A stretch of DNA of 64,000 nt. Origin: a virus. Its lineage: Duplodnaviria > Caudoviricetes. This document shows positions 5,448 through 42,553 of the stretch, piece by piece (position 1 is the stretch's first letter; each line of letters starts with the position of its first letter). The stretch is from the IMG/VR virus record IMGVR_UViG_3300025000_000057. One strand, given 5' to 3'. The notes under the pieces are model-generated. The model ran no database searches and was not told where the DNA came from. It worked only from the letters and a program-made list of their open reading frames with translations. The translations under genes and the position numbers were made by a program.

Positions 5448-5525
5448 ATGATACCTGCCGACTTAGGTATTGTAACAGGTCTTATCCTTATAGGAGTTCT
5501 TATAGGATTAATGATTCCACGTTGA
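5448..5525 (+). CDS. 25-aa hydrophobic peptide
   Basis: AAGGA SD; MIPADLGIVTGLILIGVLIGLMIPR. Confidence 0.4.
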   Translation: MIPADLGIVTGLILIGVLIGLMIPR

Positions 5526-5540
5526 AAAGAGGGTGTAAGA

Positions 5541-5708
5541 TTGCTTAATATTATATGTAGTTGCGGACAATCGGTTCTGATAGATAAATCTATAGGTATG
5601 GAAGAACTTATGCATGTAGGCTTTGAGATCAGAACTACGGGTAATGACGATATCGAATTACGTTGTCGTTCCTGTGATGAAAAGATCACCTTTAAGGAAA
5701 GTGAGTAA
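5541..5708 (+). CDS. 55-aa putative zinc-ribbon protein
   Basis: GAGGG SD, TTG start; CSC...CRSC. Confidence 0.55.
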   Translation: MLNIICSCGQSVLIDKSIGMEELMHVGFEIRTTGNDDIELRCRSCDEKITFKESE

Positions 5709-5768
5709 GATAATCTGTCTGAAGTAGGTTCAAATCTTTATCGTTCGACTAAAGACTAATAAGATTAT

Positions 5769-6049
5769 TACAGAATAGCAATCGTGGTGGTGAACACGAG
5801 ACGCGAAAAGACAAGGTGAGCGTCGGTGAATAAGGAGATACGTGACGCTCCGAATATTTGCTGGCCTAATGGGTGCCCTGAAATAACAGGGCCGATGACA
5901 GCTCTACCTATCTGTGAATTGACACAGTGATACCGTCATATGGTGCCAGGTCTAACTGTATGATTTGTGTGTAACCAGGGAATTAAATCCAGGTAACTGT
6001 ATGTAGCCTAGCCCATGACCAAGTAAGTTCGAATCTTACCTATTCTGTA
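5769..6049 (+). ncRNA. unassigned structured RNA closed by a tRNA-like acceptor stem and T-arm
   Basis: TACAGAATAG (5769-78) pairs with CTATTCTGTA (6040-49); T-arm GTAAG-TTCGAAT-CTTAC abuts the 3' strand; GC-enriched interior with no ORF. Confidence 0.6.
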
Positions 6050-6077
6050 TTTAAACTAATAGATAGGAGTTGTTTTA

Positions 6078-6443
6078 ATGCCAGAAGATGCATCAGAAGA
6101 TAAATCCCTTATCAGTATGTCTGTAAGCGATTTTACCAAGAAGGTTACGCCCGTAAATGTTAAAGACGGTAACGAATTATTCCTCTTTAAGTGCGCTGGC
6201 TGCGGCGGTCTACATTTCCGTCATGCCGGGTATGTAGAGATGGTAATGCCCTATATGAGGGCGGATAAAACCAAGAATGTCTCAACCGACTCTTACAGTG
6301 TTAAAGTATGCGTAGCCTGCCGCAAGTGCTATATCTGGGTAAATGATCAGGTCTATGATATTACAGAACACATTGACTTGAAAGCTTGGGAGAAGCTTGA
6401 GAAAGAAGCTCATAAAGCCGTAGGCCCGGGTGGAAATTGCTAA
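6078..6443 (+). CDS. hypothetical zinc-finger protein
   Basis: AGGAG SD; CAGC...CVAC. Confidence 0.7.
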   Translation: MPEDASEDKSLISMSVSDFTKKVTPVNVKDGNELFLFKCAGCGGLHFRHAGYVEMVMPYMRADKTKNVSTDSYSVKVCVACRKCYIWVNDQVYDITEHIDLKAWEKLEKEAHKAVGPGGNC

Positions 6444-6471
6444 ACTTAGCCGCCGTAACTGGCGGTCACAT

Positions 6472-6554
6472 CAGGGGTTCTCCTAACGGTAAGGAAGTGT
6501 CGCGCCTAGGCTCCGACGACGCCATAGCGGGTTCAATTCCCGCACCCTTGACCA
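6472..6554 (+). tRNA. tRNA-like gene (83 nt) with a non-canonical anticodon arm, possibly Pro identity
   Basis: acceptor CAGGGGT/ACCCTTG, A73, encoded CCA; D-arm TCCT/AGGA with GG in the loop; T-arm GCGGG-TTCAATT-CCCGC. Confidence 0.7.
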
Positions 6555-6567
6555 CTTACAAAGTTAT

Positions 6568-6601
6568 AATTACGCCTGGTTAAAATAAACCAGGCGTAAT
6601 T
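6568..6601. terminator. 14-bp inverted repeat after the tRNA-like gene
   Basis: AATTACGCCTGGTT / AACCAGGCGTAATT. Confidence 0.6.
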
Positions 6602-6664
6602 AATAAGTAAAAGGAAATACAGTAATAAAAGACAATACTACAGTAAGAAGTAAATGTTAATATC

Positions 6665-6790
6665 TTCAGGGTAGTGGGGTTGTGCGATCATCCGGATCCC
6701 GCCCGGAACGGTAATATCGGCCATTTAAGCCCGAGGCGGTAAAGTTTAGATTAGTCAGTAGCCAGGTGAGGGAATCTGGCCTACCCTGAA
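6665..6790 (+). ncRNA. unassigned 126-nt structured RNA
   Basis: 10-bp terminal stem TTCAGGGTAG/CTACCCTGAA; GCCAG/CTGGC hairpin abutting the 3' strand; GC-rich island in AT-rich spacer. Confidence 0.55.
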
Positions 6791-7706
6791 TATTTATATA
6801 TCACATAAGAAAGGAGATGAAATAAGAGTGCATCTATTACACGATAGTACGGTTGTATGTTGCTTGCTAGATAAGGTATTCTGCGGAATGCTGGTATGCA
6901 TATATATAGACTTACCATACGCATACCTTTCTCTGGTTAAGCTACAACAGGGCGCCCCGCAACTATCACCGGAGATACACGGATTTCCAACCGGTTTTAC
7001 TTAAGGGTTTTGCTTAGTTCCCGAATATTTATATTTTAGCTCATTACCTGAGGGGTTGGGCCGGGCCGATATTGCTGTGACCGGCCCTCGGTTCATTTAT
7101 TGATTAATAAGAAAGGAGGTGAATACTAATTACTATATTAATAGCCTTTTGCCGGTTTTCTGGTTATGCGTGTAATTGTTATGTGTATGAAGGATCTTCT
7201 AAGCATATTGCTGTTTTAGGATATGGACATGCAATTGCTTTATCAGGGAATTCTCTTGCCTTAGAACGTGCTTTTATATTAGGACGTATAGGTAAGGATT
7301 TTACTGAAGCGTTTACAACTTATTGTGATGATTGGCGAGATGTAGTAAGTCGCGTAATGTATCCCATAAAGTTTATACTTAAATCATTGGCGCTTTTAAT
7401 ATCGCCAAATTGTTTATTGCCGGTGATTACCGGTACCATTTCGTTATTCCGGCGGCACTGTACTTTTGTTAGCGGTTACATCTAGCCCTTCGGGGCTAAT
7501 ACTTATCTACCTCCAATATTTATCTTACCAAAATTGCTTCTAACTGATTAAGAGAGGATGACGCCTAATGAAAGATGGTTTATACTCTAGAACCTTTGAT
7601 AAATAATATCTTGGCTGCCGGGCGCTGCCCGCGAAAGTTTCGATACGGGTAGCAGCATTTAATTTATATGATATAGTTTACTTCAGAAAGGAGGTGTTAT
7701 ATAAAA

Positions 7707-7880
7707 ATGGAATATGAATATATTTACGATTATATATACGATTTACCTTATCCGGAAGTTGAGCCATTATGGCGTAATGTTGAGTTCTTCTTAATTCCGG
7801 CAAGACTCGTATACCCGTTATTTACCATAGTCTCCGGGCCTCAGACTATTGGTGATATTCCGTATACCGATTATGGCTAA
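7707..7880 (+). CDS. 57-aa Tyr/Asp-rich small protein
   Basis: AAAGGAGGTG SD upstream; MEYEYIYDYIYDLPYPE... Confidence 0.45.
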   Translation: MEYEYIYDYIYDLPYPEVEPLWRNVEFFLIPARLVYPLFTIVSGPQTIGDIPYTDYG

Positions 7881-7976
7881 CGTCGCCCGGCCGGAGGGCT
7901 TATATCCGGTAACTAACGACCAATATTACGTATTTTCAACAAACACAGACCGGGTGTGCAGAACCCGGTCTTTTAT

Positions 7977-8558
7977 GGGCTCGACTGGTTTCGATGTGTT
8001 AGAGATGGTAAACTTGCCCGGACAGGTGGCGACTTACGCCAACAATATAAATGCCAAAACACCTTTACAAGCTGCTGCTTAGTCTTAGGACTGAATAGAT
8101 AAACAGCCTCAAAACATCGGAGCAAAACTCAGCTAACCGATTGAGAGTTTAAGAATTGAGTAATCCCCGGGAATGGGGTAGGAAATCTACATTCCTGTGG
8201 CTTCTGTGTAAGCCTACATCGGGCCGGGCCCGTGAATCGAAATGTGTAGAGCAAATCCTCGCAAATGTGAAGAGGTGGGAGGCGACAGTCCTGCGACTCG
8301 TAGAAGTCTAATGCTGCTAGTTCGGCATGAAGCGAAGAATGAAGGGGTATTACTGGTCATACTTGGAGCCGATAAGCTAGACCAGTTGGTGGAGGACCAT
8401 GTCCAGGATAGTTGGCAATTACTATCCACGGTGACCAACAGCCGGGGCGGTTCCGCCGTCCAGGAATGCGGCGAATGACTTACGTAATAAGTCTATTCCG
8501 GGTAGACGGTTAAGAGTAGCTAATACAGACGAGGGTTCGATTCCCTCCGAGTCCACCA
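7977..8558 (+). ncRNA. ssrA: tmRNA, unusually long (582 nt); tag (A)AKTPLQAAA
   Basis: acceptor GGGCTCG/CGAGTCC with G3-U wobble plus ACCA; T-arm GAGGG-TTCGATT-CCCTC; P2 TGTGTTAG/CTAATACA; tag codons 8053-8082 after ATAAAT. Confidence 0.92.
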
Positions 8559-8577
8559 ATATTTACCAACTAAGTAG

Positions 8578-8772
8578 GTGAAGTGTATGACAAAACGCTG
8601 TAAGTGTGGTTGCTGTCATGTACCTGATCATGGTGCATGTCAGACTTTTGAAGCGGGTATGAATGGTCGTTGCGTTTATTGTGACCATGGGATTAAGTGT
8701 CACCCGGGTAAAAAGAAAGAGCACAACACGCCACTGGGTAATTTGAGTAAGAAGATATTTACACATGAGTAA
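8578..8772 (+). CDS. Cys/His-rich small protein
   Basis: CKCGCCH...C...CVYC.H...CH; likely start 8587. Confidence 0.6.
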   Translation: MKCMTKRCKCGCCHVPDHGACQTFEAGMNGRCVYCDHGIKCHPGKKKEHNTPLGNLSKKIFTHE

Positions 8773-11546: not shown

Positions 11547-14405
11547 GTGATTTATATGATTGTACCAAGAGATTATCAGGCAGAGGCAGTACATGCGGTT
11601 AGAACACATTTTGTTAACCAGAATATCTGTCGGCAATTAGGCGTACTTCCTACGGCTAGTGGAAAGACCATTATCTTTTCATACATATTAATGGCTCGGA
11701 AAAGTAATGGCCCAGGTCTTGTGATAGCACACACTGACGAATTGCTAGGGCAAGCTCGAGATAAGATACTTCGAGTTTGGCCTCAAGCTCGTATAGGGTT
11801 AGTTAAAGCAGAAAACAATGACTGGCAAGATAAAGATGTTGTTGTTGCAAGTATCCAAACGCTATCAAAGGATAAAAGATTACAGCAATTCTCTTCTGAA
11901 TTCTTTGCTACAATCATCGTTGATGAGTGCCATCATGCCGTGGCCAGCTCGTATATTAAAGCCCTCGATCACCTTGCACCACGGGGTTCTAAAATCCTTG
12001 TAGTAGGTTGGACAGCAACCGCCAATAGAGGTGATAAATCCTCATTACGTAAAGTCTTCGATAAGATGGTCTTCTATAGAAGTGTCGACCAGATGGTACA
12101 GGCCGGCTGGTTGGTGCCGCCAATATCACAGTATGTTAATATAAACGCAGATTTCGGTAAGTTAAAAACAACAGCCGGAGACTTTAATAAACAAGAGATG
12201 GCTGATGAACTAAATACCGAAGAGAATAATAAGGATATCGTAAGAGCTTGGTGGAGATACGCCTGGACTCAAGGAAGGAAATGTACAATCTGTTTTACCG
12301 TAGACGTGAAACATGCTTATGCCTTACACCTATGGTTTACTAGGTGCCCTGGAGTAGTAGCAGAAGTAATCCATGGAGATAGTCCTGATCGTAAAGAGAT
12401 ACTCGAAAGATTCAAACTTGGTCAGATTAATGTCTTGTTAAACTGTCTTGATGAACAGACTGAAATACTAACAAGACGTGGTTGGGCTGGTATCGATGAT
12501 TTTAAGGATACTGATATGACTGCTGTATGGGATCAAGAAACAGACAAGATAACTTGGGAACCTGTTACTAATATCGTCCGTAGGAAGGTACAACCTGGTG
12601 AAAGAATGGTTACAGTCAGAAATCAGAGCTTAGATATACGAGTGACTGAAGGACACTCTATGAGAGTAGGAACTCGCAGTGGTGATTCTCCTATTTGGAA
12701 ATCAGTTAAAGCAGGTTCCTTACCAGAACAAACCAATCCTTATTATTTTCCTCTTAGTGGATATGCTGAACCCGAACAGATCAAAATGCCTGAAGTTAAG
12801 CGTCCTTCTAGTTCTATTAACCGTCAAATTAGTGCTCTATCTTACTATTATAGAAAGCAGGGTAATAGTAAAGATAAAGCTAAAGAACTCGCTACTAAAG
12901 CTGTCATGGATCGTATTAACTTTAACTATACTTCTTCTGATCAATTATCTTTAGATGACTGTAGATTCATTGGCCTATTTATAACAGACGGCCATTTTGA
13001 TAATAGCGAAGGGTATCGTGGTATTACAATAGGACAGTCATGGGTATATCCACAGCATCATCAAGAGATTAAGCGTATTCTGGAAAGTTGTGGGTTTGAT
13101 TATACTTATAATGAATCTGATAATATTAAAAGCTCTTATAAACAAGGTAGATATTGCATTCCAATAGGTAGTATAGGTGGTAAACTCAAGCGAGCTGGAT
13201 TTAAGAGGCTACTACCCTATTTAGATAAAGACGGTTCAGAATTACTGTTTAATCTGTGTAGGCAACAAGTTCAAGCTCTAATAGAAGGTATACATCTTGG
13301 AGATGGTAGTAAACATTATCATGAATATGGAGCTAATCCAAGAAAGAATCCTGGATGGGAAATATCTAAAACTAATAAAGTCCTATTTGATAAGTTACAG
13401 ATCTTATTGATATTGCGTGGCTTTCGAGCTTCTATGTCAGGCCCACGTATCCAACTTAATGGTACAAAACCCATATATACTTTGTACATTAGTGATAAGC
13501 AGTATCAATTAACGAATAATGCATCAGTTCCTACAAGTGGTGGAAATCCTGCTATCTTTGAGGATTTTATACTAGAAGAAAGAGTATGGTGTGTTACTAA
13601 TCAAACTCATACTATTATTACTCGTCGTAACGGTAAAGTAGTTATAATGGGTCAATGTATGGTGCTTACTGAAGGGTTTGACCATGAAGCTGTAGATTGT
13701 ATCTTAATAGCAAGACCTACAGTAAGTCAAGGTTTATATATGCAAATGATAGGTCGTGGATTAAGGCCGATCTTAGGCCCGGATGGTCGTGCTGACTTTA
13801 ATGCTAAGCCAAACTGTCTTGTACTCGATACCGTTGGTAACAGTGTAAACCATAAACTCGTAACTATGCCGATGGTTTATGGCGGCCAAGATTATAAGCC
13901 AAATACAACCAAGGCACGGGACGTAGCTAAACAATCCAAACCACGTAAGATTAGTCTTAAGCTCTATGGAGACTCCAGACAAGTTGGTGGTAGTGGTTTT
14001 ACAATGTTCCCATGGTTAGAGTTATCCTCAGAAGATATCGTACTTTCGTTTCCATTTAAACATCCATTTGCACTTCGGGTATGCTTTAACTTTGAGGTCA
14101 ATCAATGGCAGTATCAGCACTTCTATTACCAGGGAATGCAACCTTACGTACAAGTTAAAGCCTCTTACGATAATGCAGCTTCGGCTATTATTCAGGCCGA
14201 GGCAGATGCGGTTGTTATCGCAAGAGACCCTAAGAAACTAGCTAATGATGCTTATTGGCGTAAGAAGAAGGTCTCAGAAAAACAGAAAGAGACTTTAGCT
14301 AAGTTAAAGATAACTCTCGAAGACATAAATTCATTAACGATTGGTGAAGTAAGTGATATTATAACCAGTCATGTAATGAACCATGCAATATTACGACTAA
14401 ATTAG
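11547..14405 (+). CDS. SF2 DEAD/DEAH-type helicase interrupted by an intein
   Basis: Q-motif PRDYQ, Walker A PTASGKT, DECHH, TATANR, motif V restored as VLLN|CMVLTEGFD, motif VI QMIGRGLR. Confidence 0.92.
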   Translation: MIYMIVPRDYQAEAVHAVRTHFVNQNICRQLGVLPTASGKTIIFSYILMARKSNGPGLVIAHTDELLGQARDKILRVWPQARIGLVKAENNDWQDKDVVVASIQTLSKDKRLQQFSSEFFATIIVDECHHAVASSYIKALDHLAPRGSKILVVGWTATANRGDKSSLRKVFDKMVFYRSVDQMVQAGWLVPPISQYVNINADFGKLKTTAGDFNKQEMADELNTEENNKDIVRAWWRYAWTQGRKCTICFTVDVKHAYALHLWFTRCPGVVAEVIHGDSPDRKEILERFKLGQINVLLNCLDEQTEILTRRGWAGIDDFKDTDMTAVWDQETDKITWEPVTNIVRRKVQPGERMVTVRNQSLDIRVTEGHSMRVGTRSGDSPIWKSVKAGSLPEQTNPYYFPLSGYAEPEQIKMPEVKRPSSSINRQISALSYYYRKQGNSKDKAKELATKAVMDRINFNYTSSDQLSLDDCRFIGLFITDGHFDNSEGYRGITIGQSWVYPQHHQEIKRILESCGFDYTYNESDNIKSSYKQGRYCIPIGSIGGKLKRAGFKRLLPYLDKDGSELLFNLCRQQVQALIEGIHLGDGSKHYHEYGANPRKNPGWEISKTNKVLFDKLQILLILRGFRASMSGPRIQLNGTKPIYTLYISDKQYQLTNNASVPTSGGNPAIFEDFILEERVWCVTNQTHTIITRRNGKVVIMGQCMVLTEGFDHEAVDCILIARPTVSQGLYMQMIGRGLRPILGPDGRADFNAKPNCLVLDTVGNSVNHKLVTMPMVYGGQDYKPNTTKARDVAKQSKPRKISLKLYGDSRQVGGSGFTMFPWLELSSEDIVLSFPFKHPFALRVCFNFEVNQWQYQHFYYQGMQPYVQVKASYDNAASAIIQAEADAVVIARDPKKLANDAYWRKKKVSEKQKETLAKLKITLEDINSLTIGEVSDIITSHVMNHAILRLN
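12444..13655 (+). mobile_element. 404-aa intein with LAGLIDADG endonuclease, ending Gly-Gln
   Basis: starts CLDEQTEILT; block B VTEGH; LAGLIDADG-like FIGLFITDG and IEGIHLGDG; ends TRRNGKVVIMGQ with Cys at +1. Confidence 0.9.
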
Positions 14406-19236: not shown

Positions 19237-19488
19237 GTGAAAGAAGGTGAGTTAGTGTCAGATAATTGTGTCTGTCCTAGATGCAATGGTGAGTTTGTTC
19301 TTACTGAGACAGTTATTTATGAAATTGATAAAGCTGGTTATGGTTATACGAATAATCCAGTTAATTCGGAAAGTGAATTATCCTGCAAAACTTGTAACTA
19401 TAAACCAAGTTTTGGTATAGACGTTAACGGCAAAGTTACACTGGAGGTGAATAATGATGAAGAAGATAGAGTGGTTAACTCCGAATAA
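19237..19488 (+). CDS. hypothetical zinc-ribbon protein
   Basis: CPRC...CKTC. Confidence 0.6.
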   Translation: MKEGELVSDNCVCPRCNGEFVLTETVIYEIDKAGYGYTNNPVNSESELSCKTCNYKPSFGIDVNGKVTLEVNNDEEDRVVNSE

Positions 19489-19927
19489 AATAAAGTTCGA
19501 GTCGCCTCACAAGGTATTTAACCAACAGTGTAAATTAATCAGTACAGGTAATATCATAAGTGATACTCAGATAGGTTTCTTTATCAGGCCTTATCACGAT
19601 CTTTATTGCAATGGTGTAATGTTCGAGACAGGTCATCTTCAAAGAACAGATCTTCTCTCGTTTGATAACCTGCCATCCAAAGTAAGAGAGTATATTAGGG
19701 AGAAAGGTGAAAGACAAACTTTAATCCTCTACGAGTTTAGGCATTGGTATAAGGATAAGAATCGTAGAGATGTAAAGGTTCTTCACGGTTATGTAATTAC
19801 AAGCTATCATCATGAGCATATTGCTACGTTTCGTACTAATACCTTATGGAAGAGCCAGGAAATATTAAAAGAAGCTATCCAGTATGTAATTGATGGCGAG
19901 GCTTCTGGTGAGATAATATATCTGTAG
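19454..19927 (+). CDS. hypothetical protein
   Basis: GGAGG SD. Confidence 0.65.
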   Translation: MMKKIEWLTPNKIKFESPHKVFNQQCKLISTGNIISDTQIGFFIRPYHDLYCNGVMFETGHLQRTDLLSFDNLPSKVREYIREKGERQTLILYEFRHWYKDKNRRDVKVLHGYVITSYHHEHIATFRTNTLWKSQEILKEAIQYVIDGEASGEIIYL

Positions 19928-19937
19928 GAGTGATGTA

Positions 19938-20294
19938 ATGAAATTACCCGAACTAGCCGTTTGTGCTATTAGTAACGCTATATACACGATCCTGTTATTA
20001 GCTAAGGTACGAGTTACTTATAATGAGATCGAGGTAGAATTCGAACGGACAATATCTGAAACTTTTGATAGCTTTATTGACAAGATGGATAATGCTATCA
20101 AAGGAAATGATGAAGTCTTAGCGGTAGTTAAAGAAGAACTTGTATACGAGTTAACGGAAGGTAACTATTTCGATAAGTCGCAAGACTTTACCCATGATTT
20201 AGGGATTTATCTTGAAGAACGTACAAGTGCTACTCTCGAAGTGATAAACTGGTTTATCACGGTAGCAGAGGAGGCTAAACATGGAAGAGAATAA
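19938..20294 (+). CDS. hypothetical protein
   Basis: AGGAG SD. Confidence 0.65.
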   Translation: MKLPELAVCAISNAIYTILLLAKVRVTYNEIEVEFERTISETFDSFIDKMDNAIKGNDEVLAVVKEELVYELTEGNYFDKSQDFTHDLGIYLEERTSATLEVINWFITVAEEAKHGRE

Positions 20295-41459: not shown

Positions 41460-42263
41460 ATGCCATTAAACAGATGTATCTTTTCAGGTTATATTTACTT
41501 TGGCCAAGACGCACAAGGCGTCAATAGAGAATTCGGTGAGTTAAAGTCCACTCCTGCTGGTAATAAGTATGTTCGTTTCTCTACTCAAGTACCTAAGTAT
41601 GGTAAGAATCCCGACGGTTCGAAGAAAGACCCGAACTGGATAGAGTGTATTGCTTGGGATAAGACCGCTGAACGCATTTGTACCGTAGCTGGTAATAATG
41701 GCGCTCTCTTATTTAGAAGAGGCCAACCAGTAGAGATTGAATGCAGATACGATCAGAATAAGTATCAGGATAATCAGGGTGGTAAGCGTGTAAGTCATGA
41801 TTTCGTAATTATGTCCATCGAGTTGCCACCGATTAGCTTTGCTCCACAACCTGCTCAACAGCAACCGGTACCTCAACAACAACAACCGTACCAACAACCT
41901 TATCAGCAACCGACTCAACAGCCTGTACAGCAGCCATACCAACAGCCGGCACAGCAACCTGTACAACAGCCGGTTCAGCAAACTCAGCAGTACCAACAAC
42001 CTTATCAGCAGCCTGCTCCGCAACCCGGTCAGCAACCTGCACAACAAACGTATCAGCAACCGGCTCAGCAGCCTTATCAACAACCCGGTCAGCAACCTGT
42101 ACAGCAAGGACAACCGGCTCAGCCGTATCAACAGCCTTATCAACAACCGGCGCAGCCTGCTCAACCGTACCAGCAACCTGCTCAACAGCCGCAAACCGCT
42201 CCTAATCCGGCTCAGCAGGGTGGTTATCCGGGTGGCCCGACAGACCCGACTTTACCGTTTTAA
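41460..42263 (+). CDS. ssb: single-stranded DNA-binding protein 2 with a long Q/P/Y repeat linker
   Basis: WIECIAWDKTAE, RGQPVEIECR, YQDNQG OB motifs; ends DPTLPF. Confidence 0.88.
   Translation: MPLNRCIFSGYIYFGQDAQGVNREFGELKSTPAGNKYVRFSTQVPKYGKNPDGSKKDPNWIECIAWDKTAERICTVAGNNGALLFRRGQPVEIECRYDQNKYQDNQGGKRVSHDFVIMSIELPPISFAPQPAQQQPVPQQQQPYQQPYQQPTQQPVQQPYQQPAQQPVQQPVQQTQQYQQPYQQPAPQPGQQPAQQTYQQPAQQPYQQPGQQPVQQGQPAQPYQQPYQQPAQPAQPYQQPAQQPQTAPNPAQQGGYPGGPTDPTLPF
41845..42220 (+). repeat. degenerate coding tandem repeat (QQPY/QQPA/QQPV)n
   Basis: CAGCAACC/CAACAACC units repeated throughout. Confidence 0.9.
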
Positions 42264-42553
42264 TGAACCCTGTAAACCAGTCTAAATCAGGACTTAACCA
42301 GATGGCTATCTACCTTTGTGAGGCTTATATACAGACAGGCCTCACAAAGGAGGATGCTAGACTAAAGGTTAGTCAGGACTTAAATGATTTATCAGAAACT
42401 TACTCAAACAATAAGCCTGTAAAGATGGACAAGTCTCGAATGTTCGACTTATTAAATACTGCCTTAAAGCAGGCGAAGGGACTTGGAATCGAAGGTATGG
42501 CTGTAAAGAATACGCTTGTAACAATTAAGGGGATGTTGGAGGCTGATAAATAG
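42263..42553 (+). CDS. hypothetical protein
   Basis: coupled ORF between ssb and recA. Confidence 0.6.
   Translation: MNPVNQSKSGLNQMAIYLCEAYIQTGLTKEDARLKVSQDLNDLSETYSNNKPVKMDKSRMFDLLNTALKQAKGLGIEGMAVKNTLVTIKGMLEADK

Follow-up and report, generated by a model that had tools for sequence, protein, structure and literature searches.

A 582-nt locus in the genome of a groundwater phage (219,483 bp; NCBI GCA_902725955.1) raises two questions: whether an RNA of this length is a genuine tmRNA, and what its surplus nucleotides represent. The locus was analysed within a 64,000-nt stretch of phage DNA (IMG/VR record IMGVR_UViG_3300025000_000057), referred to below as the window, and all coordinates are those of the window unless another contig is named. 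A reading made from the letters alone (the sequence-only reading) had placed an expanded tmRNA with an intact tRNA-like domain at this locus.

Identification of the tmRNA gene

The Rfam tmRNA model, RF00023, matched the plus strand at 7977–8558, exactly the coordinates assigned by the sequence-only reading, over model positions 1–374 of 374 with 59.2 bits (E 1.2e-20; gathering score 47 bits), and was the sole Rfam family above threshold across the 64-kb window. This score is low for a tmRNA, most of those sampled here scoring 100–220 bits, and most of it is contributed by the tRNA-like domain, the tag region and pseudoknot 4. Folding of the whole gene gave z = -2.14 against shuffled sequences. 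The elements of the tRNA-like domain and helix 2 were located as follows.

7977–7983, plus strand: acceptor stem, 5' strand, GGGCUCG (Rfam alignment; pair probability 0.99)
7984–7994, plus strand: D-loop analogue ACUGGUUUCGA (aligned to the RF00023 consensus GAucuGGaUUCGA)
7995–8022, plus strand: helix 2, 5' strand, with 2a at 7995–8002 and 2b–d at 8011–8022 (Rfam alignment; P 0.85–0.97 for 8011–8019)
8497–8527, plus strand: helix 2, 3' strand, UCCGGGUA..GGUU..CUAAUACA (Rfam alignment and pair probabilities)
8531–8547, plus strand: T arm GAGGG-UUCGAUU-CCCUC, uninterrupted (Rfam alignment and pair probabilities)
8548–8558, plus strand: acceptor stem, 3' strand, CGAGUCC, with discriminator A73 and encoded CCA (Rfam alignment)

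The acceptor stem is of 7 bp (7977–7983 with 8548–8554) and includes G3:U70, the U lying at 8552, with ACCA at 8555–8558. Helix 2a consists of 8 bp, UGUGUUAG/CUAAUACA (7995–8002/8520–8527), with a pair probability of 0.96, and beyond it 8011–8022 pairs with 8497–8511. The tRNA-like domain is intact, as had been read from the letters, with acceptor stem, G3:U70, A73, CCA and T arm all present and the T-loop unbroken. The locus is a genuine one-piece, phage-encoded tmRNA gene with its functional signatures preserved.

ARAGORN, which the sequence-only reading had proposed as a check, called no tmRNA and no tRNA gene anywhere in the 64-kb window; this miss is a limit of the tool and no defining biological feature of the gene. 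Judging from its accession, the NCBI record appears to derive from a survey of huge phages in which tmRNAs were assigned with ARAGORN, so the 582-nt tmRNA may have been missed in the source study.

Tag reading frame

Two features carry the messenger function.

8053–8082, plus strand: tag reading frame, consisting of the GCC resume codon, AKTPLQAAA and UAG (translation; the Rfam alignment puts the model resume codon here)
8079–8094, plus strand: helix 5, UUAGUC/GACUGA, bearing the stop codon as well as UAG at 8086–8088 and UGA at 8092–8094 (pair probabilities, translation)

The frame has nine codons (8053–8079), lacks a start codon and ends at a UAG stop (8080–8082); extended to 8094 it reads AKTPLQAAA-stop-S-stop-D-stop, with three in-frame stops within 15 nt. 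Translation of 8053–8082 agrees with the tag (A)AKTPLQAAA given previously. Its description as short does not hold, as nine codons are ordinary where 10 aa is the commonest tag length (2025 tmRNA database paper, PMC11915505).

With the standard one-piece tmRNA (SsrA, RF00023; 84,269 standard-form sequences in the 2025 database, PMC11915505) the gene shares a tRNA-like domain that includes G3:U70 and CCA, a long helix 2, an alanine resume codon, a short tag ending in alanines, a stop codon in helix 5, and a structured segment separating the tag from the 3' strand of helix 2. It differs in having 250 nt where the model has 31, in having no more than a small hairpin at the position of pseudoknot 1, and in being invisible to ARAGORN.

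Length compared with other tmRNAs

The typical tmRNA was given as about 350 nt, with a range of 250–425 nt, in a 2005 alignment (PMC1168896), and the tmRNA of phage G is 308 bp (PMC12484599). At 582 nt the present gene exceeds all of the approximately 340 full-length matches sampled in three phyla, which spanned 314–503 nt. RF00023 gave 137 matches above cut-off in 151 Patescibacteria genomes (full-length ones 314–503 nt, eight of them at least 450 nt), 143 in 151 genomes from the phylum of a Eubacteriales genome (326–422 nt) and 57 in 61 Chloroflexota genomes (349–405 nt). The gene is therefore far longer than usual, as had been claimed, and comparable lengths did not occur among the sampled matches, though the Patescibacteria show a long tail.

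The Patescibacteria tmRNAs of 456–503 nt resemble the phage gene in being oversized, one-piece and low in Rfam score, and in carrying their surplus after the tag or in the pseudoknot domain, around pseudoknot 2. They differ from it in their ends (GGGGAUG...CAUCUCCACCA), in being AT-rich (35–43% GC) and in that the surplus consists partly of long tag frames, and they have no sequence in common with its interior.

Six phage tmRNAs in IMG/VR that share the 3' end of the 582-nt gene are all of normal length (332–388 nt). In three of them, L063 (375 nt), L070 (383 nt) and L071 (388 nt), the last 31–32 nt, covering T arm, acceptor stem and CCA, are exactly those of the 582-nt tmRNA, and in the other three (L064–L066, 332–333 nt) the final 26 nt match it at 92%. 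The 5' end GGGCUCGACUGGUUU.GAU recurs in L063 as well, whose agreement with the 582-nt tmRNA covers 19 nt at that end and 32 nt at the 3' end. The interiors and tags of all six were without blastn similarity to it. The existence of phage tmRNAs with the same tRNA-like ends at normal length was counted in favour of the preferred reading given below.

The last 25–31 nt recur unchanged in tRNA-Ala genes from many Patescibacteria and in several phage tmRNAs. Among GTDB species genomes the 25-mer from the 3' end was mostly the 3' end of Patescibacteria tRNA-Ala genes, and it also ends the tmRNAs of some Eubacteriales. An identity so short and so widespread does not suffice to name a host. At 8527–8561 the last ~30 nt are identical to other, more abundant contigs from the same groundwater and sediment samples, and assemblies break there.

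Position and composition of the surplus

The tag stop (8082) and the 3' strand of helix 2 (8497) are separated by 414 nt, close to the approximately 410 nt estimated from the letters, against about 180 nt in RF00023. The surplus was placed by the Rfam alignment and by helix probabilities.

8113–8362, plus strand: surplus block of 250 nt, against 31 in the model (Rfam alignment)
8108–8145 and 8309–8352, plus strand: local stem-loops inside the surplus (helix probabilities)
8220–8232, plus strand: CGGGC/GCCCG hairpin inside the surplus (helix probabilities)

Taken together with the candidate pseudoknots described below, roughly 8095–8352 would be the surplus between helix 5 and the equivalents of pseudoknots 2–4. 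The GC content of 8108–8352 is 48.6%, compared with 49.5% throughout the tmRNA and about 38.7% in the 64-kb window, which puts the block in the top 0.8% of 245-nt windows. Raised GC is what one would expect of structured RNA in an AT-rich genome; a recent capture from a GC-richer donor could look alike. The GC-richest stretch of the window lies elsewhere, at about 41775–42400, reaching 59.6% in 245 nt (mean 38.6%) inside an ORF at 41460–42263.

Pseudoknot positions

The pseudoknot positions were assigned as follows.

8028–8040, plus strand: small hairpin GGCG-ACUUA-CGCC at the position of pseudoknot 1 (Rfam alignment; P = 0.92)
8353–8496, plus strand: candidate equivalents of pseudoknots 2–4 (Rfam alignment, helix probabilities)
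8353–8385, plus strand: stem-loop CUGGUC/GACCAG within the candidate region
8386–8440, plus strand: branched element within the candidate region, GUUGGU/ACCAAC enclosing GGAC/GUCC and GGAUAGU/ACUAUCC
8441–8473, plus strand: GC-rich hairpins within the candidate region
8477–8493, plus strand: GACUUA/UAAGUC within the candidate region

At the position of pseudoknot 1 there is a hairpin of 4 bp only, with 5 nt between its strands versus 18 in the model; this spacing leaves no room for the model's second stem, and by the Rfam alignment a full pseudoknot 1 looks unlikely in the 582-nt tmRNA. Several helices of 8353–8496 have probabilities of 0.86–0.97, and Rfam aligns the helices of pseudoknots 3 and 4 at about 8380–8470, with several of the pairs non-standard. 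The region 8353–8496 probably holds the equivalents of pseudoknots 2–4.

Folding and content of the surplus

The five helices that the sequence-only reading had picked out are all present (8170–8175/8190–8195, 8199–8203/8210–8214, 8353–8358/8380–8385, 8406–8412/8421–8427 and 8477–8482/8488–8493), and the first two of them, GGAAUG/CAUUCC and GGCUU/AAGCC, fall inside the surplus block; as a set they are statistically indistinguishable from chance. Against dinucleotide shuffles, 8108–8352 folded with z = -0.63 (reverse strand -0.84), showing no excess of stability, and contained 7 candidate H-type pseudoknots compared with 4.5 +/- 3.1 in the shuffles. Of the added structural domain proposed previously, the extra sequence inside the gene, its place in the pseudoknot domain and its raised GC stand, while the structural part finds no counterpart in folding, which is no better than that of shuffles. 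The other proposal, an embedded RNA element, is not supported: no Rfam family at E<=10, no repeat and no homolog was found.

Several contents for the extra sequence were tried and rejected. A small protein encoded within the gene was set aside, the ORFs of 78, 51 and 74 aa having no Pfam match, as was an internal duplication of pseudoknot modules, since the two halves aligned locally with no more than a shuffle-level score. The odd RNAs upstream (5769–7976) showed no similarity to the block by blastn or nhmmer; the two share two words of 12–13 nt, which is chance level.

A mobile or palindromic repeat found no support either, and this bears on a wider possibility: selfish or foreign DNA, such as a small mobile repeat or a captured segment, may have landed in a tolerant part of the gene and simply be carried along. 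Treatment of the surplus by the Rfam alignment as one contiguous 250-nt insertion fits this reading, as does the lack of a fold-energy signal in the block. Yet neither the 64-kb window nor 50,697 phage records contained a second copy, and 401 Patescibacteria genomes gave matches at chance level only; no terminal repeats, long closing hairpin or internal duplication were found, and the GC of the block equals that of the rest of the tmRNA and not that of the genome. An insertion of this kind is rather unlikely.

Possible intervening sequence or processed forms

To our knowledge the T-loop is the only site of group I introns in tmRNA genes. Intron-form genes, of which the 2025 database holds 883 sequences (PMC11915505), resemble the present one in being much longer than their functional core, and differ from it in that here the T-loop is intact and no group I intron model matches. 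The form was rejected on those two grounds, Intron_gpI giving no match at 7900–8650 at E<=10. Over the same interval and at the same threshold there was no other Rfam family of any kind (no group I or group II intron, ribozyme or riboswitch), and so no recognisable intron. The permuted two-piece form (RF04321, RF01849-51) was also rejected, with partial hits only (22.4 and 21.2 bits versus a cut-off of 47).

The surplus might still be removed after transcription, either as an unrecognised intron or by RNase excision leaving a normal-sized or two-piece tmRNA. The gene minus 8113–8362 would be about 330 nt, a normal tmRNA size, and introns outside the T-loop may have been systematically missed according to the authors of the 2025 database (PMC11915505). 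Apart from the empty intron and ribozyme searches and the sub-threshold partial hits of the permuted model, the sole helix bridging the block is a 5/6 pairing, CCUCAA/UUGGAG, at chance level. Post-transcriptional removal is accordingly judged highly improbable.

Homologs and population variation

Blastn of the gene against the 50,697 phage records found no homolog of its interior, and a 25-kb part of the window likewise gave nothing by megablast in the same records. Scans of IMG/VR with the helicase as query, with the 5' 22-mer and with a degenerate tag pattern gave no interior homolog; a metagenome scan with the 3' 31-mer yielded only relatives of other phage tmRNAs, and BLAST of 8084–8500 against the 401 Patescibacteria genomes gave chance-level matches only. 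A neighbouring 187-aa ORF had no homolog beyond its own cluster among 5.8 billion proteins. Helicase homologs reached no more than 40% identity, and the contigs carrying the closest of them have no tmRNA; two of these contigs begin with the helicase gene itself and therefore lack the region upstream of it. The helicase itself (11547–14405) is 952 aa, far longer than most homologs (525–680 aa), and in a few of the long homologs there are Pfam domains of inteins or homing endonucleases.

Six public copies covering the gene wholly or partly were 100% identical, and the gene was identical in contigs of runs from two studies; the public copies are one phage population. Because all copies are identical, covariation analysis is impossible and the copies offer no evidence of selection. 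Among the sequencing runs listed as containing the stretch, none was an RNA run. Comparison of the NCBI record (L044) with the window and an ENA contig (L045) showed an identical tmRNA and two in-frame indels, each in a small ORF bordering the RNA island that lies upstream of it. The first, of 33 nt (8612–8644), is in a Cys-rich 64-aa ORF just downstream of the tmRNA, and the second, of 27 nt at about 6078–6443, is apparently in a 121-aa ORF (112 aa in L044).

Surroundings of the gene

One structured element immediately precedes the gene.

7947–7971, plus strand: hairpin AGACCGGG...CCCGGUCU with UUUUAU after it, the end lying five bases ahead of the tmRNA start (sequence)

This element represents a 5' leader structure or, alternatively, terminates the small gene upstream; it was flagged as terminator-like on the opposite strand only. 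No sigma-70-like promoter was recognisable adjoining the tmRNA gene. The sole Rfam trace in the upstream RNA island (5450–7976) was a bare T-arm match at 6527–6543 (16.7 bits); as this is the only trace and ARAGORN found no tRNA in the window, the tRNA-like elements of the island are not standard tRNAs.

No SmpB gene was found in the 64-kb window using a profile of five bacterial SmpB proteins and tblastn. In a Nealsonbacteria genome (L030/L077; G001, contig C3, 19383–20145) smpB (19720–20145) adjoins a tmRNA (19383–19715) on the same strand.

The lack of SmpB in the window is one of the points that would suit a gene that no longer tags, being either in decay or a decoy competing with the host tmRNA for SmpB, synthetase or stalled ribosomes. 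The low Rfam score with a poorly matched interior and the reduction of pseudoknot 1 to a hairpin point the same way, and there is a precedent in mycobacteriophage DS6A, whose tmRNA-like RNA without a tag frame reportedly inhibits endogenous tmRNA in E. coli, as cited in PMC11915505. Against this, the acceptor stem, G3:U70, CCA, T arm, helix 2a and a tag frame with an alanine-rich end and triple stops are all intact, and the GC content has not relaxed toward the 38.7% of the genome. Loss of tagging is thus considered unlikely.

Interpretation

The preferred reading, given a probability of roughly 60%, is a real phage tmRNA in which the surplus is a lineage-specific expansion of the pseudoknot domain, most likely with a passive or scaffolding role. 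Counted in favour of a working tmRNA were the RF00023 match over the full model, the absence of a Pfam-matching ORF and of any other Rfam family, the mutual fit of both ends, the intact tag frame, the triple stop and the GC content shared by the surplus; the expansion itself finds a parallel in the 456–503-nt Patescibacteria tmRNAs, which have their surplus in the corresponding region. On the other side were counted the low score, the hairpin at the position of pseudoknot 1, shuffle-level folding of the surplus, the identity of all copies, and the lack of an SmpB gene in the window and of a recognisable promoter.

What follows on how the RNA would be expressed, charged and used for tagging, and on what the extra block might do, is inferential throughout. 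The tmRNA would be cut out of a longer transcript, as the lack of a recognisable promoter and the hairpin ending five bases before the gene suggest. Host alanyl-tRNA synthetase would charge it with alanine, and together with SmpB it would enter stalled ribosomes (trans-translation). The ribosome would resume on GCC, add (A)AKTPLQAAA and stop at UAG, backed by two further in-frame stops. The expansion of about 230–250 nt between helix 5 and the equivalents of pseudoknots 2–4 would then be extra folded RNA at a place where the molecule may tolerate variation.

The presumed role of phage tmRNAs is to keep the ribosomes of the host free for use, or to detect stalled translation, while infection proceeds. 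A more ambitious reading would make the ~250-nt block a self-contained functional module that the phage tmRNA has acquired: either a new kind of intervening sequence, whose excision leaves a normal or two-piece tmRNA, or a platform binding a phage or host protein, through which the phage controls ribosome rescue during infection. This reading is very unlikely. The case for the gene is weakened in that only one phage population carries it. Counts of phage tmRNAs based on ARAGORN miss such forms. An intact tmRNA with about 250 nt of surplus would give a measure of the additional RNA that the pseudoknot domain can accommodate, and the 582-nt tmRNA is a natural test case of whether that domain can host new functions.
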